A DNA stretch of 64,000 nt from a phage. The stretch lies in the NCBI GenBank assembly GCA_019326865.1, contig GCA_019326865.1_4101.1, one strand, 5' to 3'. The first letter of the stretch is position 1. Every line of letters starts with the position of its first letter. Positions 3,753 to 59,221 of this stretch are shown here, piece after piece. A program made the translations under genes and the position numbers. The notes beneath the pieces are model-generated. The model saw only the letters and a list, made by a program, of their open reading frames with translations, was not told where the DNA came from and did not search any database.

Positions 3753-4595
3753 GTGTTTGATTTCAGTGATATTAAAAATAAGTCAGTCGATGATGATAAA
3801 CCAACACAGCAGTCTTTTTCTATTGCTGAATTTCTAAAACATATTGACCGTGCTGATTATAAGTTCTATAATGACATGACAGAAAAAGAACGAAAAGAGT
3901 TTACACCTTATACTGTTTTGCGATGGGTAAGCTCTTTGGATGATTCTCTTCAAGTTACATATCCAAGTAGTAAAGTTGAAAAAGTATTTGGTAAATGGAA
4001 AGCTGGTGGTAAGGAAACATTAACTGAACTAGTAACTGAATTGAAGTCTTCTGGGACTAATGTTTCATCAGTAACCAAGTACTGTCACGGTGACTATGAT
4101 TGGCGTATTAAATTTGCGGTTCAATCTAAAGATGCTGCACAAAAATTAATATCATCAATGACAGAATTTGGTGTAACTGGTTCTGAAATTGTGTCATTAG
4201 TAGATACTGAAGTTGTAAAATATCAACTTATTATGCTGAATGACATGGTTAATGATGGTTTTTGGGATATGAAAGAACATCCAGAATTAGTATATCAACT
4301 TATGTGCTCAGTGCATGATATGATTGGTGGACAAGAAATGCCCCGTAATTGGTTGAATTTTTCTAAAAATTTCAAAAAAGCAAACAATGAACTATTTGAA
4401 TTAATTAAAAGTTCACAACCTGATACTATTTCTACTCAAATGAATGAAGATGAATATAAAATTGTTTTATTACAGTATGATAAAAAATCATTTGAAACAT
4501 TTCTTGACAATAATGGTTTACAAGATAATGAAAAGAAATCTATGATGAAATTGTTTAAAGATGAATGTAAAAAATATGGAAAAGAAATCAAGTAA
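3753..4595 (+). CDS. hypothetical protein
   Basis: 280-aa ORF, apparent GTG start. Confidence 0.5.
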   Translation: MFDFSDIKNKSVDDDKPTQQSFSIAEFLKHIDRADYKFYNDMTEKERKEFTPYTVLRWVSSLDDSLQVTYPSSKVEKVFGKWKAGGKETLTELVTELKSSGTNVSSVTKYCHGDYDWRIKFAVQSKDAAQKLISSMTEFGVTGSEIVSLVDTEVVKYQLIMLNDMVNDGFWDMKEHPELVYQLMCSVHDMIGGQEMPRNWLNFSKNFKKANNELFELIKSSQPDTISTQMNEDEYKIVLLQYDKKSFETFLDNNGLQDNEKKSMMKLFKDECKKYGKEIK

Positions 4596-5286
4596 TAAAG
4601 TATACACCTGTAAATTTTGTGACCGTGAATTTAAACGAGAAGAAACTGTCAGCACACATAAATGTATAAAACGTGACCGATACGAAGACCGCCAAAGCCG
4701 CCAGATGATGGAGGCTTTTCGTATATATATGCAATTTATGGAATTGAATAAGTTCCCATTTAAAAAAGGCGTGGAGCCTTTTATTGCTTTTATAAAATCG
4801 AAGTACTTTAATGATTTTTATAGTTTCGCAGAATACTATTTGAATAATAGAGATATTATAAATGTGGACGAGTTTGTAAAGAACTTGATTATCACTAACA
4901 GACCAATTACTGAATGGAGTACGTATAAAGCAAAAGATGAATGGATATTAAAAACTATTCGTGCAGAACATCCAAAAGAAGCTATTGCACGAAGTGTAAT
5001 ATCATTGGTTGAATGGGCTGAAAAGTTGAATGTACAATGGAACACCTTCTTTGAAAATGTAAGTTCTGCTCGTGCAATTGCATGGATAGAGAGTGGTAAA
5101 ATTTCACCGTGGATTATATGGCTTGCTCCTAAAAAAAGTACTAATAAGTTTTTTAAAAAACTATCAAACTCAGAAATTGAATATATACTTAAATACATCG
5201 ATCCAAGTTATTTTGAAATAAAAACTATAAAATACAAAAAGGATTGTGATGAAATTAAGATTATGCTATGTGAGGCAGGATTATGA
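4561..5286 (+). CDS. hypothetical protein with C2HC zinc-finger-like motif
   Basis: CKFCDREFKREETVSTHKC near N-terminus; 241 aa. Confidence 0.5.
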   Translation: MNVKNMEKKSSNKVYTCKFCDREFKREETVSTHKCIKRDRYEDRQSRQMMEAFRIYMQFMELNKFPFKKGVEPFIAFIKSKYFNDFYSFAEYYLNNRDIINVDEFVKNLIITNRPITEWSTYKAKDEWILKTIRAEHPKEAIARSVISLVEWAEKLNVQWNTFFENVSSARAIAWIESGKISPWIIWLAPKKSTNKFFKKLSNSEIEYILKYIDPSYFEIKTIKYKKDCDEIKIMLCEAGL

Positions 5287-5612
5287 ATGGAAAAAGTATA
5301 TATAACAAAATACCAGAAGGGTATGTACCTGTACCTAAAGAACAAAAATCAAAACAAATATCTCTACTTCGACAAGGATCTATTACTGAAATAACACTAG
5401 ATGGCAAAACATTTCAAGTTCACGATCCGGCTCGTGTTGAAAAAATAATTTCTTTAGTTGAAAGACATGAAGAGCGATTTTTTAGTTTGAGTCAGGAGTT
5501 AGCAAAGACAAAACAAAATTGTAAAATATTAGAGAAACAAATATCAACGTTAGTTAATACAGTTAAACAGTTACAGGAGCAAATAAAAAATGCAGGATTT
5601 GACCGATTCTAA
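5283..5612 (+). CDS. hypothetical protein
   Basis: 109-aa ORF, coiled-coil-like C-terminus; start overlaps previous stop. Confidence 0.5.
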   Translation: MNGKSIYNKIPEGYVPVPKEQKSKQISLLRQGSITEITLDGKTFQVHDPARVEKIISLVERHEERFFSLSQELAKTKQNCKILEKQISTLVNTVKQLQEQIKNAGFDRF

Positions 5613-6228
5613 ACATTATAGAAAGGCCCGAACTGATATTGACATTGACTTCAAGGATAGTAAAAGTGTAATTGCAAAACTTCCTTGTGTACGAAGTACT
5701 GAAAAAATTACGGAGGATGGTTTAATCCCCCATAATAGTGGTGTTCATTTTGACAATATACCAACTGATCCAATTACTGGTTTGGCTAGTATACAATATA
5801 AAGAAGCTGAAAGGTTAGGATATCAAAAAGTTGATATTCTTTCACAGTCAGCTTACATGTATGTTCGTGATAGAGAACATTTAAAAGAACTAATGAATCA
5901 GGAACCAAATTGGGATTTATTGTTAGAACCCGAAATAGTAGAGCATCTCTCGCAAATTAAAAAACATGTAACATTGTTAAATGTATGGAAGCCTAAATCA
6001 ATAGACGAACTGGCAATGTTTATTGCCATGATTCGCCCAGGAAAAAGGCAGTGCCAAAGTATGAACACATGGGACGAGGTAAAAGCCACCATATGGGACT
6101 ACAGTACTATTGGCACGGACCAAGCAGGAAATAAATTACGATATTTCAAAAAGCCACATGCTTATGCATATAGCTTAATGATTGTTGTACAACTAAATGC
6201 TTTAGTTGAACATCTTACTTCTTCTTAA
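5590..6228 (+). CDS. DnaE (Pol III alpha)-like palm/fingers fragment
   Basis: By-eye motifs matching DnaE in order: DIDIDF (cf PDFDVDF), HNSGV (cf HAGGV), YQKVDIL (cf KFDFLGL), AMIRPG (cf LFRPGP), KKPHAYAYSL (cf NKSHSAAYAL); only 212 aa. Confidence 0.45.
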   Translation: MQDLTDSKHYRKARTDIDIDFKDSKSVIAKLPCVRSTEKITEDGLIPHNSGVHFDNIPTDPITGLASIQYKEAERLGYQKVDILSQSAYMYVRDREHLKELMNQEPNWDLLLEPEIVEHLSQIKKHVTLLNVWKPKSIDELAMFIAMIRPGKRQCQSMNTWDEVKATIWDYSTIGTDQAGNKLRYFKKPHAYAYSLMIVVQLNALVEHLTSS

Positions 6229-6568
6229 GTGCCACATTACGACGTTTGATGCGTTTCTGTGGCAAATTGCTTAAAGAAACTACTGGACCACATACGAAAT
6301 TCACCGATTGTGTATCGAATCTCTGTGTGTACGGTTCAAATTTCTCCATCTCTTCTTGAAAGAATAGACAAACTGGAATGGTTCTATTACTTTGCCACCA
6401 CCAATCATGTGCTATACTTAACAATTCGTCTTGCATTGATTCATTCATATCATCGAAACAATAAAGAGTTGTATACTGTTTGCTTTTGATTTTGATGATA
6501 CCAATAAACGTTTTACCATCATACTGGATTACAGTAATGAATGGTGGGATAGTGTTATATTGATTCAT
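6215..6568 (-). CDS. hypothetical protein (minus strand)
   Basis: 117-aa ORF filling the gap between + genes; basic C-terminus; 3' end overlaps convergent + gene by 14 nt. Confidence 0.4.
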   Translation of the reverse strand: MNQYNTIPPFITVIQYDGKTFIGIIKIKSKQYTTLYCFDDMNESMQDELLSIAHDWWWQSNRTIPVCLFFQEEMEKFEPYTQRFDTQSVNFVCGPVVSLSNLPQKRIKRRNVALKKK

Positions 6569-6625
6569 ATTAGTTCCATAAATATTAGTATAAATTTATA
6601 CCTATTATTTATGGAAGGAAAAACT

Positions 6626-7603
6626 ATGGCTCATCACGGCGTGTTTATGTACCCTTATAACCAGGAAGTATCATTGGGCAATTTTAATATGCCATTTAGT
6701 AATGAAAAACTAACTATCTATCGAGGGGCAAATAATAATTTATCTTTTACTGTTCACAACGCTGATGGAAAATATACTTTATTGAAAGATAATGAATATC
6801 TTACATTTATGATTTTTGATGCACGAAATAATACTAAACTATTTGATGTTGTATTGGAAAAGCAAGAACCAAGTTGGTTATCAGAAAGTGGTCAAGCTCG
6901 TCAAACATTGGGAAATAAAAAGAAAGTATACTATGGATGTATTGTTCCAGCAGGAGTTATTCAAGATACCAGTCCTGGTTCCAAATATAGATGGAGCATT
7001 ACTAAAGTAACTATGGATGGTTCACTTATAGAACCAACACAATATCTATACACTGGAATGAACTTTGAGGCATCAGCGGAGCTAATAATTTCAGACCAAG
7101 CAGCCCCAGTATTTGTTCCTAGTACTGAAATATCTACAGACAAAAATCCAGCCTGGACATCAATAAAGCGTTTATATAATGAACCAATTGGTAATGGTAT
7201 GATAGGTGAGTATGATATACTAGCATCAACTCCACTTCCAGCACAAATGCAGTATGGGTTGGTTGATGGGCTAAGTAGCATTGCAATCTATTTTGATAAA
7301 TTCATTGGAAGAATACAGTTACAAGGATGTTTGTGTAATAATGTACCTAATGATAATGAAAATTATAAATGGTTTATAATCAAATTAGATGGAAAGGATT
7401 ATATTGAAAATGGGATTGATATTGATGGATTTCCAAAAGAGCTTGATGGTATTCAAGCATTTAATTTCAAAGGAAATTATATGTGGTTGCGAATCGTAGT
7501 AGCAATTCATCCTAAAAATGTTCCAGTACCATACGACTATGCTGCTGTGCGAAAAGTGTATAATCCTTTATTAACTGTACCTAAAATTTTGATTCGCAGG
7601 TGA
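6626..7603 (+). CDS. hypothetical protein
   Basis: Start moved to ATG at 6626 after GGAAGGA RBS; about 325 aa. Confidence 0.55.
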   Translation: MAHHGVFMYPYNQEVSLGNFNMPFSNEKLTIYRGANNNLSFTVHNADGKYTLLKDNEYLTFMIFDARNNTKLFDVVLEKQEPSWLSESGQARQTLGNKKKVYYGCIVPAGVIQDTSPGSKYRWSITKVTMDGSLIEPTQYLYTGMNFEASAELIISDQAAPVFVPSTEISTDKNPAWTSIKRLYNEPIGNGMIGEYDILASTPLPAQMQYGLVDGLSSIAIYFDKFIGRIQLQGCLCNNVPNDNENYKWFIIKLDGKDYIENGIDIDGFPKELDGIQAFNFKGNYMWLRIVVAIHPKNVPVPYDYAAVRKVYNPLLTVPKILIRR

Positions 7604-12307: not shown

Positions 12308-12981
12308 ATTACGAATATGATCAACAATCAGTCAATCAGATGGCTGATTTGTTAAGTGGTCTTAATGATATTGAAGCTGGTGAGACACATGATGCGGCTG
12401 GTGTACCATATAAAGCTAGTGGTGATATTGGTGCAATGACTGCTATTTTAACTTCATTAAATGAAGCGGGTATGGATTATGGTATTGAACCTGAACAGAC
12501 ACATCCGAAGGTTGTGTCATATAACGCACCATTTAACGAACACATGAATGGACAACAACATGTTCAGCCTGTGATGCAACGTTCACCTTCTAAACCGAAA
12601 ACCAATTGGAGTTTAGTAGAAGAAAAGGTACAAGGCACGAAATCTACTAAAGTTTATAGTATTAAGTGTAACCATAGTTCACAAATTATCATGAATAATA
12701 TTATGATGTATGAAGCAGCACTTACTTTAGTTAACCTTCTTAACGAAGGGCGAATGTTGACAGATGCTAAAGTTCTTGGTATAATTAGTTCGGGTTTGCA
12801 ATACACAAATGTAATAAGCGAAGCATTAAAAGCAGCCCATAAACGCCAACGTGTACTTAATGAATCAAAGTATGATGAAGCAAAAGATTTAGATATAATC
12901 ATTGCAGAAAAGAAAGCAGAAGCGTATAAATTAAAAGAGCGTGTATTAAACTTTCTTAAAAATGAAGGGTACATCACTTGA
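12304..12981 (+). CDS. hypothetical protein
   Basis: 225-aa ORF. Confidence 0.5.
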   Translation: MNYEYDQQSVNQMADLLSGLNDIEAGETHDAAGVPYKASGDIGAMTAILTSLNEAGMDYGIEPEQTHPKVVSYNAPFNEHMNGQQHVQPVMQRSPSKPKTNWSLVEEKVQGTKSTKVYSIKCNHSSQIIMNNIMMYEAALTLVNLLNEGRMLTDAKVLGIISSGLQYTNVISEALKAAHKRQRVLNESKYDEAKDLDIIIAEKKAEAYKLKERVLNFLKNEGYIT

Positions 12982-14729
12982 TTATAGATGAATTGAAGAA
13001 ATTCTTAAAAAGCAAAAACAAAAAAACATGGGTTAAGTTGGTAAGCAATAATGAAGTGTATTTTAAATATGTTCGTGAATTATTCCCAACTAAACCCATG
13101 AATGAAGCATTGTATCTTATAATGAACGATATGGTATGTGCACCATCTGCCCCATGTGGCTCTGAATGTAAATTTATTAATGGTTCATATGATAAGTATT
13201 GTTCTAAGCCAACAAAACCAAACAAAAATCGTGATAATGGTTTTTGTGTAGTATGCAATGAGCATTGGAAGAACGCCAAACTCAAAAATACTAAACAAAA
13301 ATGCCTTGATGCTTATGGAGTCGAATATCATTGGCAAAGAAATGATGTGAAGGACAAAATAAAAAGTACTAATATGAAACGATATGGCGTTGAGCACAAT
13401 TCGCATATCGAACATGTTCTTGAAAAAAGAAAGGAAACCTTCATTAAAAGATATGGTGTTGAATCACCTTTAGCATCTGTTGAAATTCGTGATAAGATAA
13501 AAGCAACAAACATTGAAAAATATGGTGTTGAAAATTATGGAAGTACTGATGAATGTATAGAAAAACGAAATAAAACAATGATGGATTTATATGGTGTTAA
13601 TAATGCACAACATGTAACGAAATTTTTAAATGAATCAAAGGTTACGAAAGCTAAAATTAGGTATGATAAAATTTTATCTATTATTAACCCTTCATATAAA
13701 GAACTTTTTGAATATGATGACTTGATAGATTCAACTAATGAAAGTAAACTTCCGTATTATTGTGAAATACACAAAGGGCTGTTTTATAGTAATTATAAAT
13801 ATGGTATAGTTTGTAGTGTTTGTAATCCACCCGTGTATAGTTCCATACAAAATGAAATAAAGAATTTTGTATCAACATTGACTGAATGTGACATTATTAT
13901 GAATGATCGAAGTAATGGGTATGAATATGATATATACATCCCTGAACTCCAGATAGCAATAGAAGTTAATGGAATGTATTGGCACAAAAGTGATATGGTT
14001 GATAAGTATTATCATAGGACAAAAACAATAAATTCGATTGAACGTGGAATTAGATTGATACATATATTTGAAGATGAATGGTACAGTAAACAGGAAATTA
14101 TTAAAAATAGATTAATGAACGTTTTTCAATGTTCTAGTAAGATTTATGCCAGAAAATGTATTGTTAAAAAAATTAACACAAATATTTGTTATGATTTCTT
14201 GAACACTAATCACATACAAGGATATACTAAAACTGGAATAAACTATGGTTTGTTTTATAAACAAGAACTGATTGCAGTAATGACGTTCAGTAAAAGTCGA
14301 TATGATAAAAAATTTGAATATGAGCTAATACGATATTGCTCACGTGGAACGGTTGTTGGTGGGGCTGGTAAATTATTGTCTGCATTTGAGCGTGATTACA
14401 AACCATTGTCGTTGATGAGCTACGCAGACTTGAATTGGGGTTCTGGGCAGTTATACATATCTCTTAATTTTGAAAATTTGGGATATACCGAACCCAAATA
14501 TTTTTATTATGATCCAAAAACAAAACAGCGTTTTTCTAGACAAAAATTTAGAAAACATAAATTGATTGAAATGGGCCACGACTCATCTAAAACTGAAGAA
14601 GAGATATGCTTAGGTGAAATTGGATTGTATAAAATATACGATTCTGGCAATTGCAAATTTGCTAAATATTATTACAACATAAACATTACAGGAGATATTG
14701 AAAAATGTCCAAATCGTACAAAAAACTAA
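12978..14729 (+). CDS. putative homing-endonuclease-like protein (tandem repeats + nuclease motif)
   Basis: Cys-rich N-terminus; five ~22-aa repeats with [KR]YGVE core; later DIYIPELQIAIEVNGMYWH resembling Vsr/DUF559-type endonuclease motif; 583 aa. Confidence 0.45.
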   Translation: MIIDELKKFLKSKNKKTWVKLVSNNEVYFKYVRELFPTKPMNEALYLIMNDMVCAPSAPCGSECKFINGSYDKYCSKPTKPNKNRDNGFCVVCNEHWKNAKLKNTKQKCLDAYGVEYHWQRNDVKDKIKSTNMKRYGVEHNSHIEHVLEKRKETFIKRYGVESPLASVEIRDKIKATNIEKYGVENYGSTDECIEKRNKTMMDLYGVNNAQHVTKFLNESKVTKAKIRYDKILSIINPSYKELFEYDDLIDSTNESKLPYYCEIHKGLFYSNYKYGIVCSVCNPPVYSSIQNEIKNFVSTLTECDIIMNDRSNGYEYDIYIPELQIAIEVNGMYWHKSDMVDKYYHRTKTINSIERGIRLIHIFEDEWYSKQEIIKNRLMNVFQCSSKIYARKCIVKKINTNICYDFLNTNHIQGYTKTGINYGLFYKQELIAVMTFSKSRYDKKFEYELIRYCSRGTVVGGAGKLLSAFERDYKPLSLMSYADLNWGSGQLYISLNFENLGYTEPKYFYYDPKTKQRFSRQKFRKHKLIEMGHDSSKTEEEICLGEIGLYKIYDSGNCKFAKYYYNINITGDIEKCPNRTKN

Positions 14730-17668: not shown

Positions 17669-19987
17669 ATGATTAACGTAACCAAGCGTAATGGAATGAA
17701 AGAACCGTTATCATTGGATAAGATCCATCAGATTTTATTTTTCGCTGCTGAAGGTCTAAGTGGTATTTCAGTTTCTGAAATTGAAATTCGTGCACAACTT
17801 CAGTTTTATGAAGGTATTGAAACTAGTACTATTCATGATATTCTGATTAAAGCAGCCGCAGAACTTATTTCAGAAGATACACCAAATTACCAATATGTTG
17901 CTGGTAGATTATTAAACTATAGTATTCGTAAGCAAGTATATGGGCAGTATGACCCGATTAAATATGCTGCTCATCTTCAAGAAATGGTTGATATCAAAAT
18001 ATATGATCCTGAAATTCTTGAAAAATATACTCTTCAAGAAATAGAAGAGCTTGGGCGTTATATCAAACATAAACGTGACGATAAATTTACTTATGTTGCA
18101 ATGCGACAATGGGAAGGAAAATACCTTTACAAAAACCGCGTTACTAAGAAAATTTATGAAACTCCACAAATGGCATATATGACTATTGCCGCAATCATTT
18201 TTATGGAGTATGATCGTTCCGTTCGTATGTCATATGTTAAAAAGTTTTATGATGCAGTAAGTAACTTTGACATTAGTCTTCCTACACCTATTATGGCTGG
18301 TCTACGTACAAACACACGTCAGTTTAGCTCTTGTGTAGTTCTAAATGTTGGTGACAGCTTGGATAGTATTGGTTCATCTAACCACGCCATTCTACGTTAT
18401 ATTTCACGTAAAGCTGGTCTTGGTATTAATATGGGCCGCATTCGTGCCTTGGATTCCGAGATTCGTTCAGGTGATGCAGTACATACTGGATTGATTCCGT
18501 TCATTGCAGCTACTGCTAAAACTGTTAAAAGCTGTTCACAAGGTGGTGTTCGTGGTGGAGCAGCAACTGTTCACTTCCCATTGTGGCATTTGGAATTTGA
18601 TAACTTGGTAGTTCTTAAAAACAACAAAGGAACTGAGTTTAACCGTGTACGTCAACTGGACTATTGTTTCCAAGTAAACAAAACTTTGTATCAACGTTTG
18701 GTTGATGGAAAGAATATCACGTTCTTTAGTCCTAATGAAGTTCCTGGGTTATATGATGCATTCTGCTCTGATCAAAAAGAATTTGAAAAGCTATATAAAA
18801 AATACGAATCTGACCAAAGCATCCGTAAAAAATCCGTACCTGCTGTTGAAGTATTCAGTACTTTAATGACGGAACGTGCAGAAACTGGTCGTATCTATAT
18901 TCAAAATATTGACCATACAAACACACACTCAACATTTATTGAATCAAATGCTCCTATCGAGCAATCCAACTTGTGTCAGGAAATCGCACTACCATCTGTG
19001 CCATTTGATGATATTAATACTGGTAAAGGTTTGATTAGTTTATGTACCTTGAGTGCAATCAACTGGGGTAACTTTGACCGTCCAGAAGAGATGGAAACTG
19101 CATGTGATCTTTCTGTTCGTGCTCTTGACTCACTTTTAGACTATCAAGACTATCCAGTAGTTCATGCGGATCGAGCAACAAAAATGTATCGTCCACTAGG
19201 TGTTGGTATTATTAACTTTGCCTATTTCCTTGCTAAACGTGGTTTACGTTATAATGAAGCTGCACTGGAAACAGTTAACGAATGGGCTGAAGCATGGTCT
19301 TACTATCTAATTAAATCGTCTGTACAGCTTGCTAAAGAGAAAGGTAAATGTGAAGGATTTGATAATCTAAAATATGCCAAAGGTATCCTTCCAATTGATA
19401 CTTATAAATCTGATATTGATGAATTAGTAACTAAAGAACTAAAACAAGATTGGGAATCTTTGCGTGAAGATATCAAAGAATATGGCATTCGTAACGCAAC
19501 AACCATGGCATTAATGCCAGCAGAAACAAGTGCACAAATCAGTAACAGTACTAACGGTATTGAAAAACCACGTTCTCTCGTAACTAAGAAACTATCTAAG
19601 GATGGTATTCTTAAACAAGTAGTTCCTGAAATTAATAAATTAAAAAACAAATATGATTTATTATGGGAACAAAAAGATAACATTGGTTATCTACAAATTT
19701 GTGGTGTTCTACAAAAATACATTGACCAAAGCATCAGTGTTAATACCAGTTATAACCCAGCACACTTCCCTGATGGGAAGTTGCCAATGTCGACTCTCCT
19801 AACTGAGCTTATGTATGCATATAAGGTTGGTTTGAAAAATCTTTATTATCATAATACAAATGATGGTTCAGATGAAGTAGACGTTGAAAAAGTACTGAAA
19901 GAAGCTGCAAAACCAGAATCAGGGCAGTTCGTGTTACCTACACTATCGGACTTAGATGAAGGTGATTGTGATAGTTGTAAAATCTAA
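17669..19987 (+). CDS. nrdA: ribonucleoside-diphosphate reductase alpha subunit (class Ia)
   Basis: N-terminal ATP-cone (VTKRNG...), 772 aa, C-terminal Cys pair (CDSC); followed by nrdB. Confidence 0.85.
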   Translation: MINVTKRNGMKEPLSLDKIHQILFFAAEGLSGISVSEIEIRAQLQFYEGIETSTIHDILIKAAAELISEDTPNYQYVAGRLLNYSIRKQVYGQYDPIKYAAHLQEMVDIKIYDPEILEKYTLQEIEELGRYIKHKRDDKFTYVAMRQWEGKYLYKNRVTKKIYETPQMAYMTIAAIIFMEYDRSVRMSYVKKFYDAVSNFDISLPTPIMAGLRTNTRQFSSCVVLNVGDSLDSIGSSNHAILRYISRKAGLGINMGRIRALDSEIRSGDAVHTGLIPFIAATAKTVKSCSQGGVRGGAATVHFPLWHLEFDNLVVLKNNKGTEFNRVRQLDYCFQVNKTLYQRLVDGKNITFFSPNEVPGLYDAFCSDQKEFEKLYKKYESDQSIRKKSVPAVEVFSTLMTERAETGRIYIQNIDHTNTHSTFIESNAPIEQSNLCQEIALPSVPFDDINTGKGLISLCTLSAINWGNFDRPEEMETACDLSVRALDSLLDYQDYPVVHADRATKMYRPLGVGIINFAYFLAKRGLRYNEAALETVNEWAEAWSYYLIKSSVQLAKEKGKCEGFDNLKYAKGILPIDTYKSDIDELVTKELKQDWESLREDIKEYGIRNATTMALMPAETSAQISNSTNGIEKPRSLVTKKLSKDGILKQVVPEINKLKNKYDLLWEQKDNIGYLQICGVLQKYIDQSISVNTSYNPAHFPDGKLPMSTLLTELMYAYKVGLKNLYYHNTNDGSDEVDVEKVLKEAAKPESGQFVLPTLSDLDEGDCDSCKI

Positions 19988-20034: not shown

Positions 20035-20808
20035 ATGAAAGTTGATTATTTTAAACCAATTAATATTGGTTTCATTGAGGAATTTTGGGATGATTTGGAC
20101 ATGGATATGATTGTTCGCCATCAAAAGCTTCCAGACGATTTCATTAAGAAGCATTTTGATAAAATGAACCCTAACATGTTGGCTCGTTATCAAACTATGT
20201 CAATTGATTTCTTAAAAGAAAAGTGGGAATGGTTCGATAAGAACGTTCTGGCAACATATGTTGTCATGCCACTGGAACTCATTAAAGAAAAGTGGGATGA
20301 TTTTAAAGATAACTGTCTTGGAACAGTTGCAAAATACCAAAAAATGTCATTGGATTTTATACAAGAAAAATGGGATGACTTTGTAGAGTTTAAAGATGGT
20401 GTAATGTCAGAAATCTCTCGTTACCAAAAATTAACTCTGGATTTCATTCAAGATAAGTGGGAATATATAGATAAGAATTATATTTCTTATTATCAAACTT
20501 TAACTGTTGATTTCATCAAAGATAACTTAACAGAACTGAACATTGCTGCGGTATCTGCATTCCAAATTATTTCTGATGATGTTCGAAATCTTATGGGATT
20601 GGCTGCACCAGCAGCAACCATTACCGGAAACCAAATATTATCTCTAGACCCATGTGTGGATGGTATGGCACGATATAACGCCCATACTCCTGATAACACA
20701 ACAGTACTGACATGGAATGAATTATTACAAAAACACTTGGGTACACAGGACGGAATTCGTGATATCCATTGGTTGTCTTATAAACTAGGACATAACATCA
20801 ATACATAA
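20035..20808 (+). CDS. tandem-repeat protein
   Basis: Five to six ~27-aa repeats with core YQ-x-[ML]-[ST]-[IL]-DF-[IL]-x-[ED]-KW-[DE]; 257 aa. Confidence 0.55.
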   Translation: MKVDYFKPINIGFIEEFWDDLDMDMIVRHQKLPDDFIKKHFDKMNPNMLARYQTMSIDFLKEKWEWFDKNVLATYVVMPLELIKEKWDDFKDNCLGTVAKYQKMSLDFIQEKWDDFVEFKDGVMSEISRYQKLTLDFIQDKWEYIDKNYISYYQTLTVDFIKDNLTELNIAAVSAFQIISDDVRNLMGLAAPAATITGNQILSLDPCVDGMARYNAHTPDNTTVLTWNELLQKHLGTQDGIRDIHWLSYKLGHNINT

Positions 20809-20827
20809 TATATAAGGAAATATATAA

Positions 20828-21952
20828 ATGTCCGTTTTTAAAATTAACGAAAAATCACACTTAGAAAAAAATATGTTTTTTGATGAAAGTGTTGACATTC
20901 AACGATTTGAAAGTGTAAAATATTCAGCACTAGAGAAACTAACTGAACAACAAAAAAGTTTCTTCTGGACCCCAGGAGAAGTTGATGTATCTAAAGATAA
21001 AATTGATTTTGCCAACCTTAATGATTCAGAGAAGCACATTTTTACCTCTAACTTGAAACGTCAAATTCTTCTTGATTCTGTACAAGGTCGTGGTCCAAAC
21101 CTAATGCTACTACCATATGCATCACTACCTGAATTAGAGAACTTTATTGAGACATGGGCATTCTTTGAAGGTGCGATTCATAGTAAATCATATACTCATA
21201 TTATTCGTAACATTTACCCTAATCCATCTGAAGTGTTTGATACTATGTTGGACATTCCAGAAATCACAGATTGTGCGGCTGATGTGTCTAAGTATTATGA
21301 TGAACTGGATGAGCTAGGTACATGGTATAAAGTACTGGGTGAAGGAACTCACAATGTCAATGGTAAAACTATTGTTGTTGATATGTACGAACTTAAAAAG
21401 AAAATGTGGTTGTGTCTGAATAGTATTAACATCCTTGAGGGTGTGCGTTTTTACGCTAGTTTTGCCTGTTCGTGGGCCTACGCCGAAAACAAGCTTATGG
21501 AAGGTAATGCCAAAATTATTCGTCTAATTTGTCGTGATGAAAATTTACACTTAGCGGCAACACAAATGATTCTTCGCCTACTTAAGAAAGAAGATCTAGA
21601 CTTTGCAAAAATTGCAGAAGAGTGTTATGATGAAGTACTGGAAATGTTCATGTCTGCAATCCGTCAAGAAGAAGCTTGGGCAGATTTCCTCTTTAAAGAT
21701 GGTTCAATCATTGGACTAAATGCAGAAATCCTAAAACAATATGTTCGCTGGATTGGTTCTAAGCGTATGTCAGCACTAGGAATTAAATGTCCATATACTG
21801 TATCTAAGAGTAACCCACTACCTTGGACTGAGCATTGGGTTAGTGGTGGTTCAGTACAAGTTGCACCGCAAGAAACTGAAATAAGTTCTTACATCATTGG
21901 TGGTATTGTTAATGATATCCAAGGAGATACATTCACGCCATTCAAACTATAA
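20828..21952 (+). CDS. nrdB: ribonucleoside-diphosphate reductase beta subunit
   Basis: 374 aa, ferritin-like helices, directly downstream of nrdA; uninterrupted. Confidence 0.8.
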   Translation: MSVFKINEKSHLEKNMFFDESVDIQRFESVKYSALEKLTEQQKSFFWTPGEVDVSKDKIDFANLNDSEKHIFTSNLKRQILLDSVQGRGPNLMLLPYASLPELENFIETWAFFEGAIHSKSYTHIIRNIYPNPSEVFDTMLDIPEITDCAADVSKYYDELDELGTWYKVLGEGTHNVNGKTIVVDMYELKKKMWLCLNSINILEGVRFYASFACSWAYAENKLMEGNAKIIRLICRDENLHLAATQMILRLLKKEDLDFAKIAEECYDEVLEMFMSAIRQEEAWADFLFKDGSIIGLNAEILKQYVRWIGSKRMSALGIKCPYTVSKSNPLPWTEHWVSGGSVQVAPQETEISSYIIGGIVNDIQGDTFTPFKL

Positions 21953-38780: not shown

Positions 38781-39092
38781 ATGTTTAATCCTTTCTTTGA
38801 CCCGTCAGGGATGACCGAAAAGGAACTACAGTTGAAAATTAATGAACAATCAATGCGTTTAACAGCAGCACGTGCTGCTGGGATGAGCAATATGATTATT
38901 GGTAATATGCAAACTGTGTTAAATCAATGTTATGCTGAACTAGAACTTCGTCAAGGACAAAAAGAGAAAAATGTTTATGATGATGAAGGTCCATGTATAT
39001 TTGACATGGATTCCTATCTAACAGATAATGAAGAGGCCCAAAAGAAGAAAAATGAAAGTACAAGGAAACAGATTTATAAGTCCCAATGGTGA
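38781..39092 (+). CDS. hypothetical protein
   Basis: 103-aa ORF; 3' end overlaps next ORF by 65 nt in another frame. Confidence 0.45.
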   Translation: MFNPFFDPSGMTEKELQLKINEQSMRLTAARAAGMSNMIIGNMQTVLNQCYAELELRQGQKEKNVYDDEGPCIFDMDSYLTDNEEAQKKKNESTRKQIYKSQW

Positions 39093-39570
39093 TGTGAAAT
39101 GTAATCTTAATGCAGTTGTTTATGCAATCAACTGTGGTGTAGATATCCAGTACTTGCAATTACAGGAAATTGATGAACCTGAAAGGTTAAAATTCAATGA
39201 TAACTGTAAAAAATTTGGCTTAGAACAACGTATGCTAGATTATACAATAGAACATGATAAAAATCATGAACTTTGGCGTTATGATCCTGTATACGATAAT
39301 ATAAATCTTCGTGATTATTTTTTAGAAAAGTGTACGTCAGATGAAGCACGAAAACGTGTTGAGTATGAACTTGATTTATATGAATATTATAATATGACTA
39401 AGCTATTGAGATGTATGATATGGCTAGTCGATTATATGGAAGAAAATAAGATCTTTTGGGGTCTTGGGCGTGGAAGCTCTGTTGCATCGTATTGTCTGTT
39501 TTTGATTGGTCTACATATGGTAGATTCATTGAAATATGATCTTGATGTTAATGAATTTTTGAAATGGTAG
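39028..39570 (+). CDS. DnaE (Pol III alpha)-like fragment carrying the GRGS motif
   Basis: C-terminal GLGRGSSVASYCLFLIGLHMVDSLKYDLDVNEFL parallels DnaE [34 protein letters not shown]; preceding YELDLYEYYNM resembles DnaE. Start uncertain. Confidence 0.45.
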   Translation: MKRPKRRKMKVQGNRFISPNGDVKCNLNAVVYAINCGVDIQYLQLQEIDEPERLKFNDNCKKFGLEQRMLDYTIEHDKNHELWRYDPVYDNINLRDYFLEKCTSDEARKRVEYELDLYEYYNMTKLLRCMIWLVDYMEENKIFWGLGRGSSVASYCLFLIGLHMVDSLKYDLDVNEFLKW

Positions 39571-57325: not shown

Positions 57326-59221
57326 ATGAAACCTATCCGAGTACTATCTCTTTTTAATGGGATGAGTGTAGGATACATGGCATTAAAAGATGCTGGTATC
57401 CCTGTTGAAAAATATTATTCATCCGAAATTGACAAATTTGCTATAGCTGAATCCCAAGCTAACTTCCCCGATATCATCCAATTGGGTGATGTAACTAGAT
57501 GGAAAGAATGGGATATCGAATGGGACAAGATAGATCTACTGATGGGTGGTTTTCCATGCTTCCCAGCAGGAACTATGATAATGACAAATAAAGGTCATAA
57601 AGATATAAAAGATATAAAAATTGGTGATATGGTTCTTACACACACTGGACAGTACCAAAAAGTATTGAGTACTTGTGTAAAACAAGCACCAACTAGAATT
57701 ATATCAGGTCAGGGCCATTTACCTATTGAATGTACCGATAATCACCCATTTTATTCGAGAGTTTTGGGTAAAAAATGGAATAATGCCAAACGTCAATATG
57801 ATAGAATAGCAAGCGATGCAGAATGGGTATATGCATCAGAATTAACACCAAATCATTTACTATGTAATGTAAAATCATCGTATGTTCGTGAATCATCATT
57901 GAGAGATGAAAAATTTTGGTATTTTATGGGTAGATTTGCAGGAGATGGGTGGGTATCAAAAGTTAAACGTCAAAAAAGAAAAAATAGTTATGTATATAAA
58001 GTGTTAATGTGTTGTGCACATGATGAATTTGATGAATTGGTTGAATGTTTTGATGGTTTAAAAATGAATTATAATTATACCAAAGAACGCACTTCATATA
58101 AATTTTATATTACATCAAAAACTTTACTTGAATTCTGTGAAAAGATGGGGAAAGGTGCTTCTAATAAAATTGTTCATCCTGAATTATGGTCCGAATGTGT
58201 AGAAAATAAAAAAGCTTTTCTTGAAGGGTACATATCGGCTGACGGTCATTACTATGATGGTAAATGGCACATTACATCAACATCATCAAACATGATATTG
58301 GGTATACAGCAATTAGTCATGGACATTTATGGAAGGCATGTGAATATACATAAAGTCACACCGTCACCCACTAAGATTATTGAGGGACGTATAGTAAATC
58401 AAAAACCGTGGTACAGAATAGAATTCACTGAAAATCCACTAAAACATGAAAATGCTTTTTATGATGATGATACGTATGCTTGGGTAAACGGTGTCAAAAA
58501 AAGTATACCTACAAATGAAATAAAAGACGTATATTCATTTGAAGTTGCAGTAGATAACACATATACGGCGAACAATATTGTAGTTCATAACTGTCAAGCG
58601 TGGTCAGTTGCTGGGAAACAAGGCGGTGTGAATGACCCTCGTGGTATGTTATTCCATACAATGGTTGATATTTACCAGCACATAAAAAGTCTCAATCCAG
58701 ACTTGAAAGTACTGTTCGAGAATGTTAAAATGAAAGAAGATTTCAAGCAATACATTAATAGTGTTCTTGAGATGACACCAGTACTGATAAATTCCCAGCA
58801 TTATACGCCTCACTTCAGGCAGAGATATTACTGGTACAGTACTGATAAACTTTTTATACCACCTGCATTATCCAATGCACCTAAACTTCAAGATATTATT
58901 GAAGATGGTTGGTACACTGACAGAACCGCTTCGTACTGTATAGATGCTAACTATTTTAAGGGTGGTGATTGTAACCAGTACTTTAATAAATCAAGAAGAC
59001 AAATTGTTTTCAAAGAACCTGATATCGATAGGGATTTCCTTCTTGAACATGGTAAGCGAAATGTGGACTATCGTCATTTAACAGTACAAGAGTGTTGCAT
59101 GTTGCAAGGAATTGATGTAAACTACTTCAAAGTTAGTAGTTCAACACAAGCATACAAAATGCTTGGGAATGGATGGACTATGCCAGTTATATCACACTTA
59201 CTACGAGATATATTCTTTTGA
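57326..59221 (+). CDS. DNA (cytosine-5)-methyltransferase interrupted by an in-frame intein
   Basis: N-extein: motif I LFNGMSVG, E-x-D, GGFP; C-extein: CQAWSVAGK (completes motif IV), ENV, QRYYW, MLGNGWTMPVISHL. Exteins total about 286 aa. Confidence 0.75.
   Translation: MKPIRVLSLFNGMSVGYMALKDAGIPVEKYYSSEIDKFAIAESQANFPDIIQLGDVTRWKEWDIEWDKIDLLMGGFPCFPAGTMIMTNKGHKDIKDIKIGDMVLTHTGQYQKVLSTCVKQAPTRIISGQGHLPIECTDNHPFYSRVLGKKWNNAKRQYDRIASDAEWVYASELTPNHLLCNVKSSYVRESSLRDEKFWYFMGRFAGDGWVSKVKRQKRKNSYVYKVLMCCAHDEFDELVECFDGLKMNYNYTKERTSYKFYITSKTLLEFCEKMGKGASNKIVHPELWSECVENKKAFLEGYISADGHYYDGKWHITSTSSNMILGIQQLVMDIYGRHVNIHKVTPSPTKIIEGRIVNQKPWYRIEFTENPLKHENAFYDDDTYAWVNGVKKSIPTNEIKDVYSFEVAVDNTYTANNIVVHNCQAWSVAGKQGGVNDPRGMLFHTMVDIYQHIKSLNPDLKVLFENVKMKEDFKQYINSVLEMTPVLINSQHYTPHFRQRYYWYSTDKLFIPPALSNAPKLQDIIEDGWYTDRTASYCIDANYFKGGDCNQYFNKSRRQIVFKEPDIDRDFLLEHGKRNVDYRHLTVQECCMLQGIDVNYFKVSSSTQAYKMLGNGWTMPVISHLLRDIFF
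57557..58591 (+). mobile_element. intein with LAGLIDADG homing-endonuclease domain (345 aa)
   Basis: Starts CFPAGTMIM, block B TDNHPF, two LAGLIDADG-like motifs (FMGRFAGDGWV, FLEGYISADGHY), ends NNIVVHN before +1 Cys. Confidence 0.7.

Follow-up and report, generated by a model that had tools for sequence, protein, structure and literature searches.

The locus described here raises the question of whether a protein of 212 amino acids that carries a row of DnaE-like motifs is part of a working DNA polymerase or what is left of one. It lies in a 64,000-nucleotide stretch of phage DNA (hereafter, the window), where the original prediction had read it as a DnaE fragment that complements a second ORF at 39028..39570 and that could be either a degenerate remnant or a repurposed non-catalytic module. 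The first part of that reading held, in that the protein is shorter than its DnaE counterpart and the junction between the two proteins fits, but the second did not, given invariant catalytic residues, a low dN/dS and co-occurrence with the partner. We refer to the two proteins as the C-half and the N-half.

The C-half gene can be read directly from the window at positions 5590..6228 on the plus strand. It begins with ATG, is preceded by a Shine-Dalgarno sequence, AGGAG, at 5576..5580 on the same strand (9 nt before the ATG) and encodes the palm catalytic beta-sheet and truncated fingers of a Pol III alpha. The start of the gene overlaps the last 23 nt of the upstream gene (5283..5612, plus strand), which encodes a small coiled-coil protein annotated as a virion structural protein (phrog_14909). 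At its 3' end, 14 nt are shared with a convergent gene on the minus strand (6215-6568) that belongs to phrog_11637, of unknown function. A promoter and terminator scan returned 21 promoter-like sites against 22.6 expected, and no tRNAs were found in the 64-kb window.

The full length of the C-half matched phrog_11778, annotated 'DNA polymerase', at E 2e-108. By sequence alone, its matches to DnaE itself look weak. The sole Pfam match was a sub-threshold hit to DNA_pol3_finger (residues 129-162, E 0.043), and a 33-sequence C-half profile searched against all PDB sequences found M. tuberculosis DnaE1 alone, in four colinear pieces and with a marginal E of 0.7. Single-sequence phmmer searches of either half against PDB gave no significant match. 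Alignment of the C-half family to the single E. coli DnaE sequence with hhalign placed K80/D82 on K553/D555, yet with a probability of 1.9%. Because this result was weak, a broader HMM and structural comparison were relied on instead. An HMM built from 135 family members and compared one-to-one with E. coli DnaE scored 22.2 bits (per-sequence P 3.7e-9), with the match made up of three colinear stretches at DnaE residues 399-418, 540-641 and 741-767. The AlphaFold model of the window protein had a mean pLDDT of 92.9; its palm-plus-fingers fold is superposable on solved Pol III alpha structures, which took all of the top nine places in a Foldseek search against PDB, all other hits having E > 2. 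We regard the DnaE-likeness of the C-half as confirmed and as real far beyond chance, since a chance resemblance of motifs was ruled out by their colinearity and by the restriction of matches to C-family polymerases. The motifs named in the original prediction are all in place, namely DIDIDF (aa 16-21), HNSGVHF (48-54), YQKVDIL (78-84), AMIRPG (146-151) and KKPHAYAYSL (187-196), and profile alignment to DnaE kept them in DnaE order and pointed to no unrelated family.

These alignments allowed residues of the C-half to be mapped to E. coli DnaE and their conservation to be scored in 103 cluster representatives that are 21-44% identical to the window protein. D16-I-D18-I-D20 (5635..5649, plus strand, as are all motifs that follow) forms a DxDxD metal-binding motif equivalent to D401/D403/D405, and aligns to PDFDVDF of both E. 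coli DnaE and M. tuberculosis DnaE1. D16 and D18 were present in 101/101 aligned representatives and D20 in 98/103. The third catalytic aspartate, which had been thought not obviously conserved, is D82 within YQKVDIL. It belongs to the KxD motif K80-V-D82 (5827..5835), which hhalign and HMM alignments placed on K553-x-D555 of E. coli, with G77 on G550, and both K80 and D82 were found in every one of the 103 representatives. H48-N-S-G51 (5731..5742) is probably the counterpart of the HAGG motif, H48 and G51 standing for H511 and G514; this equivalence was drawn from motif order, without a scored alignment, and the motif lies just past the place where a thumb would be. H48 was retained in 100 and G51 in 99 of the 103 representatives. 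In the fingers, R149-P150-G151 (6034..6042) aligned to R639-P640-G641 (R149 in 101/103, P150 in 102/103), and K187-K188-P-H190 (6148..6159) aligned to FNKSHS of DnaE and DnaE1, corresponding to N757-K758-S-H760, so that K188 and H190 match K758 and H760. Position 187 is K in 94/103 representatives and R in a further 6/103, and H190 occurs in 98/103.

The protein had also been described as far smaller than the equivalent DnaE region, and it does compress E. coli DnaE ~386-782 into 212 aa. It is small because two blocks are absent. D18 and H48 are separated by 30 aa, compared with 108 aa between D403 and H511 in E. coli, leaving ~78 aa missing, and R149 and K188 are separated by 39 aa, compared with 119 aa in E. 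coli, leaving ~80 aa of the fingers missing. The spacing of the first pair suggests that the thumb (E. coli ~432-510) is absent from the C-half. The protein then stops ~24 residues past the KSH-equivalent motif, at about DnaE 782. Complete fingers, the (HhH)2 clamp-binding domain and the OB/tau-binding domains are absent, and no longer phage homologues were seen among the matches listed. As for the PHP domain, neither half had a PF02811 match, and the N-half aligns from DnaE residue 245 onward only.

The N-half (39052..39570, plus strand; 172 aa) comprises the helical palm subdomain with a nucleotide-phosphate-binding GRGS loop. A longer ORF opens at 39028, but translation probably begins at the ATG at 39052, given the 172-aa length of the homologues. 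The N-half was recognized by Pfam as PF07733 (DNA_pol3_alpha), with 38.3 bits against a cut-off of 23.9 over profile positions 16-95, and over its full length as phrog_11127 'DNA polymerase' (E 2e-86). In hhalign, the N-half family aligned to residues 245-394 of E. coli DnaE with a probability of 88% and E 3e-6, its last residue, W180 in the numbering of the 180-aa ORF, falling on P394. In the same numbering, G147-R148-G149-S150 (39466..39477, plus strand) corresponds to G361-R362-G363-S364 of E. coli. The GRGS motif is invariant in 31 homologues, as are W144, G145, the longer GRGSSV stretch (147-152), S154 and Y155. The position of E. coli R390 is taken by an invariant glutamate, E176, and nucleotide contacts are therefore not identical to those of DnaE. 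The claim that the C-half begins where the ORF 39028..39570 ends relative to DnaE was borne out, as the N-half ends at DnaE 394 and the C-half picks up at ~395-399. Only the two proteins together provide the GS loop and the three catalytic acidic residues of a Pol-beta-like palm.

The halves also travel together. By tblastn, 96 phage records contain the C-half and 94 the N-half, and the counts by genus are nearly the same; the one surplus record from Klebsiella is 85.7 kb long, compared with ~346 kb for the other Klebsiella phages listed. Both halves are kept together in phages of at least 17 host genera, and both were present by tblastn in Atu_ph07 and SCTP-2, two phages named by Iyer et al. 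(2021). In the window, 33 kb separate the two genes, and in relatives the distance is 14-116 kb. They are separate in every isolate listed, with the C-half usually upstream of the N-half on the same strand. A frameshift or assembly artefact as the cause of two genes was ruled out by the distance of 33 kb and by the separate start of each gene. An exhaustive profile search of 1.84 billion representatives gave 514 matches for the C-half. Among the 150 of these that were listed, nearly all were ~220 aa or shorter, most were 180-220 aa, and none was a full-length DnaE.

Natural single-chain fusions, with the N-half followed by the C-half, were found in P0302, P0390 and P0391 (375-376 aa) and in P0379 (336 aa), and thus in two distant lineages. 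P0302 and P0391 are encoded on metagenome contigs with a GC content of 25-27% (L003, 1066-2193, and L007, 519-1649, respectively). P0302 (375 aa) is a complete gene inside its contig and has two relatives of the same length, 78-81% identical, from other samples. Its PF07733 match spans the junction and the DxD motif without a break, and on it the end of the window N-half (…EFLKW) and the start of the window C-half (MQDLT…) meet with a 5-residue overlap. P0302 is 31-36% identical to the two window proteins and served as a stand-in for the pair; its AlphaFold model, made with a block alignment that included both window proteins, reached a pTM of 0.86. For this alignment, subsets of N- and C-halves were sifted until the block structure was clean, as an all-inclusive MAFFT alignment with the concatenated query was misaligned. 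The closest C-half relatives of the P0302-type fusions are split proteins of 206-222 aa that are 51-59% identical, so fusion looks secondary within a split lineage. P0379 comes from a different setting, a JGI metagenome contig of 7992 bp with a GC content of 59% (L006, 1516-4181), and carries the motifs RGSGGAS and DYDIE. It overlaps by 4 nt the end of an upstream gene for a 552-aa protein with PF03090 Replicase and HTH domains, and this pair looks like a small replication module outside jumbo phages.

Selection on both window genes was measured against phage 121Q. The C-half differs from its 121Q orthologue by 31 synonymous and 3 non-synonymous changes (dN/dS 0.020), and the N-half by 34 synonymous and 5 non-synonymous changes (dN/dS 0.025). 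The pattern of conservation and selection fits a working catalytic site rather than decay or lost catalysis, and we judge that the C-half is conserved, real and probably active, the activity being a prediction. It might be the functionless product of decay of a phage or host dnaE gene that was formerly full-length; in favor of this are a length roughly half that of the corresponding DnaE region, the loss of most DnaE domains and the term 'truncated' that a 2017 genome paper applied to the partner gene. Such a remnant should hardly show a dN/dS of 0.02, catalytic residues that stay invariant at 21-44% overall identity, a length held at 180-220 aa across most listed representatives, a Shine-Dalgarno sequence and start codon of its own, and strict co-occurrence with a partner half; we give this explanation almost no credence, and the selection and conservation data already refute it. 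A repurposed module that serves as a DNA-binding or scaffold subunit, for example of the replisome or the virion, and that has lost nucleotidyl transfer would account for the absence of thumb, PHP and clamp-binding parts, for neighbors annotated as virion structural proteins and for the presence of a family B polymerase in the phage lineage. It is nevertheless improbable, because the strictest conservation falls on metal ligands and nucleotide-contact motifs (DxD, KxD, GRGS, RPG and KxH) that a scaffold would not need.

We consider it likely that the pair forms a two-subunit minimal phage nucleotidyltransferase of the C family (Pol III alpha/DnaE-like) with a composite active site, which acts as an auxiliary polymerase beside a T4-like replisome. 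The analysis shows the homology, the fold, the conservation of residues, the co-occurrence, the natural fusions and the purifying selection; from these we infer the physical association, catalysis and biological role of the pair, and the view of the site draws on established knowledge of the Pol-beta-like transferase fold. With the GS loop on one side of the break and the DxD strand on the other, both chains would have to contribute to the active site. The N-half would supply the helical part of the Pol-beta-like palm, with its GRGS loop holding the phosphates of the incoming nucleotide. The C-half would supply the beta-sheet with the metal-binding aspartates D16, D18 and D82 and with K80, and would add shortened fingers with R149-P150 and K187/K188/H190. 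The chains would associate non-covalently and then form one active site, with no intein involved. The enzyme may be a low-processivity DNA polymerase for tasks such as repair, gap filling or primer extension in the T4-like replication and recombination module. This auxiliary role seems the most likely one because the enzyme has no PHP, thumb, clamp-binding or OB domain and because a gp43-like family B polymerase is found in the phage lineage.

Against this reading stand the missing thumb, clamp-binding and OB domains for holding DNA, E176 of the N-half at the position of E. coli R390 and the weak sequence matches of the C-half to DnaE. Another explanation is that the two chains form an active nucleotidyltransferase other than a template-dependent DNA polymerase, such as a terminal transferase, a nucleotide-signal synthase or an enzyme that nucleotidylates proteins or nucleic acids in phage-host conflict. 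We hold this unlikely, as C-family-specific fingers motifs are kept, the genes lie within replication and recombination blocks, and one fused homologue adjoins a replicase gene. A C-half that acts alone, its link to the ORF at 39052-39570 being coincidental, could be argued from the 33 kb between the genes here, the 14-116 kb in relatives and the fact that they are never adjacent in the isolates listed. However, the C-half is without a GS loop, which every Pol-beta-like transferase needs, the phyletic distributions of the halves match, natural fusions occur in two distant lineages, and in the fusions the Pfam match spans the junction unbroken; a lone C-half therefore has next to no chance of being the right explanation.

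A split minimal Pol III alpha of this kind has already been described by Iyer, Anantharaman, Krishnan, Burroughs and Aravind (2021, Viruses 13:63, PMC7824862), and the C-half is half of that system, so the feature is already known. In that study, group 2.2 jumbo phages, which have a family B polymerase as well, were found to encode the enzyme as two free-standing proteins whose genes lie far apart. The N-terminal one binds the NTP, the C-terminal one binds Mg and the template, and no other Pol III domains were reported from these phages. The authors proposed a function in one-strand synthesis or repair and took the pair as a model of the ancestral enzyme. Earlier, in 2017, the N-half had been mentioned in the genome paper on CBB, where it was called a 'truncated' Pol III alpha. 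The pair in the window is of the same kind, with two distant genes, a junction at DnaE ~394-399 and the name 'DNA polymerase' in PHROGs and RefSeq. Added here are the mapping to E. coli residues, the figures for conservation and selection, the spacing that accounts for the missing ~80 aa blocks (thumb and inner fingers) and the metagenome fusions. The single-chain fusions, above all the Replicase-linked one, are the sole elements that we did not find in the literature searched. The search for experimental follow-up turned up the 2021 comparative paper and genome reports but no biochemical or genetic work on any family member, and the PA5oct omics paper makes no mention of the polymerase.

Several known enzymes offer comparisons. 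DnaE and PolC are single chains of ~1160 aa, whereas the phage enzyme would consist of two chains with ~384 aa in total, has no PHP domain and is missing the thumb, ~80 aa of the fingers, the distal fingers and the clamp-binding, OB and tau-binding regions. In cyanobacteria, DnaE is reportedly split into DnaE-n and DnaE-c, which are joined by a split intein. The phage pair resembles this case in that a C-family polymerase comes from two genes far apart on one genome. The cyanobacterial break, however, is in the fingers (~774) and bears intein pieces that trans-splice the protein into one chain, whereas here the palm is broken, after the GS loop and before the DxD strand. A split-intein arrangement was ruled out for the phage pair, as the N-half ends with …EFLKW-stop, the C-half starts with MQDLT and neither half has a Hint or intein Pfam match; there is no room for intein sequence at the break, and the halves therefore stay separate. 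Split family B polymerases are represented by gp43A and gp43B, said to occur in Aeromonas T4-like phages, and by the split PolB of Methanothermobacter. These share with the phage pair a replicative-type core in two polypeptides and an expected reassembly, but they have an unrelated fold (RRM-like palm), and their phage examples are encoded by neighboring genes and retain all domains.

The host of the window is a jumbo coliphage. A 3.1-kb stretch around the C-half gene is 99.6% identical to Escherichia phage UE-S1 and ~94% identical to 121Q, PBECO4 and other Asteriusvirus jumbo coliphages of the Rak2-like group. In the UE-S1 record (ON568341), window positions 4500-7600 match at two places, and the matching stretch overlaps the right terminal repeat annotated there; the window appears to run across the genome end of that record. 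The 121Q orthologues of the two halves, gp16 and gp56, are named 'DNA polymerase' in RefSeq. Both lie inside one plus-strand block of ~45 kb with genes for replication, recombination and nucleotide metabolism, which include those for SSB, UvsX, UvsY, a DnaQ-like exonuclease, UvsW, primase, a gp41-like helicase, NrdAB, RNase H, Dda, topoisomerase II and a gp44-like clamp loader. The T4 gp43-like family B polymerase of 121Q is encoded ~17 kb further upstream of this block, outside the region covered by the window. 121Q also encodes a gp23-like capsid protein and a late sigma factor, which identifies, through 121Q, a T4-like jumbo phage with a gp23-type capsid and a family B polymerase.

Several other genes in the window deserve mention. 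A DnaQ-like 3'-5' exonuclease is encoded at 439-1257 on the plus strand (Pfam RNase_T, E 5e-15; phrog_192 'DNA polymerase exonuclease subunit', E 6e-61). It lies 4.3 kb upstream of the C-half and is a candidate proofreading partner, though the split polymerase lacks a PHP domain, to which epsilon binds in E. coli. At 12978-14729 (plus strand), an ORF of 583 aa opens with TTG; its matches are phrog_3339 'homing endonuclease' (E 4e-134), Pfam DUF7487 and restriction-endonuclease-like domains. No equivalent of it is present in the 121Q loci examined, and it makes up most of the ~2.5 kb of extra spacing between the polymerase halves. A 257-aa ORF at 20035-20808 (plus strand) sits between nrdA (17669-19987) and nrdB (20828-21952); it belongs to phrog_3532, of unknown function, and has no Pfam match. 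In 121Q, nrdA and nrdB are adjacent, without an ORF between them. We take its position to recall that of the mobE homing endonuclease between nrdA and nrdB of T4. At 57326-59221 (plus strand), a C5-cytosine DNA methyltransferase (PF00145) contains an intein of 345 aa that carries Hint and LAGLIDADG domains. Comparison with the intein-free gp91 of 121Q (286 aa) places the insertion in catalytic motif IV (GGFP | CFPAGT…VVHN | CQAWS), so the catalytic cysteine is the +1 residue.

Archaeal and eukaryotic replicases are not related to Pol III alpha, the replicase of bacteria. A natural minimal core made of a palm and partial fingers in two chains offers a system in which to ask which parts of the 1160-residue enzyme catalysis needs, and a split Pol III that is conserved in many jumbo phages beside a family B polymerase offers one in which to ask about the role of a second polymerase in a T4-like replisome. 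The present analysis corrects the reading of the C-half as a remnant or non-catalytic module and adds natural fusions. A bolder proposal, which we put forward tentatively and regard as somewhat doubtful, is that the pair is a self-sufficient, thumb-less C-family polymerase of ~45 kDa with its site across the subunit interface, and that its single-chain relatives are the replicative polymerase of small mobile replicons. If this were true, the relative of the C-half and N-half on the high-GC element, which lies behind a primase-like Replicase gene, would serve a small mobile replicon, and the phage pair would be the smallest working member of the bacterial replicase family and would provide an experimental handle on a minimal or ancestral Pol III core.
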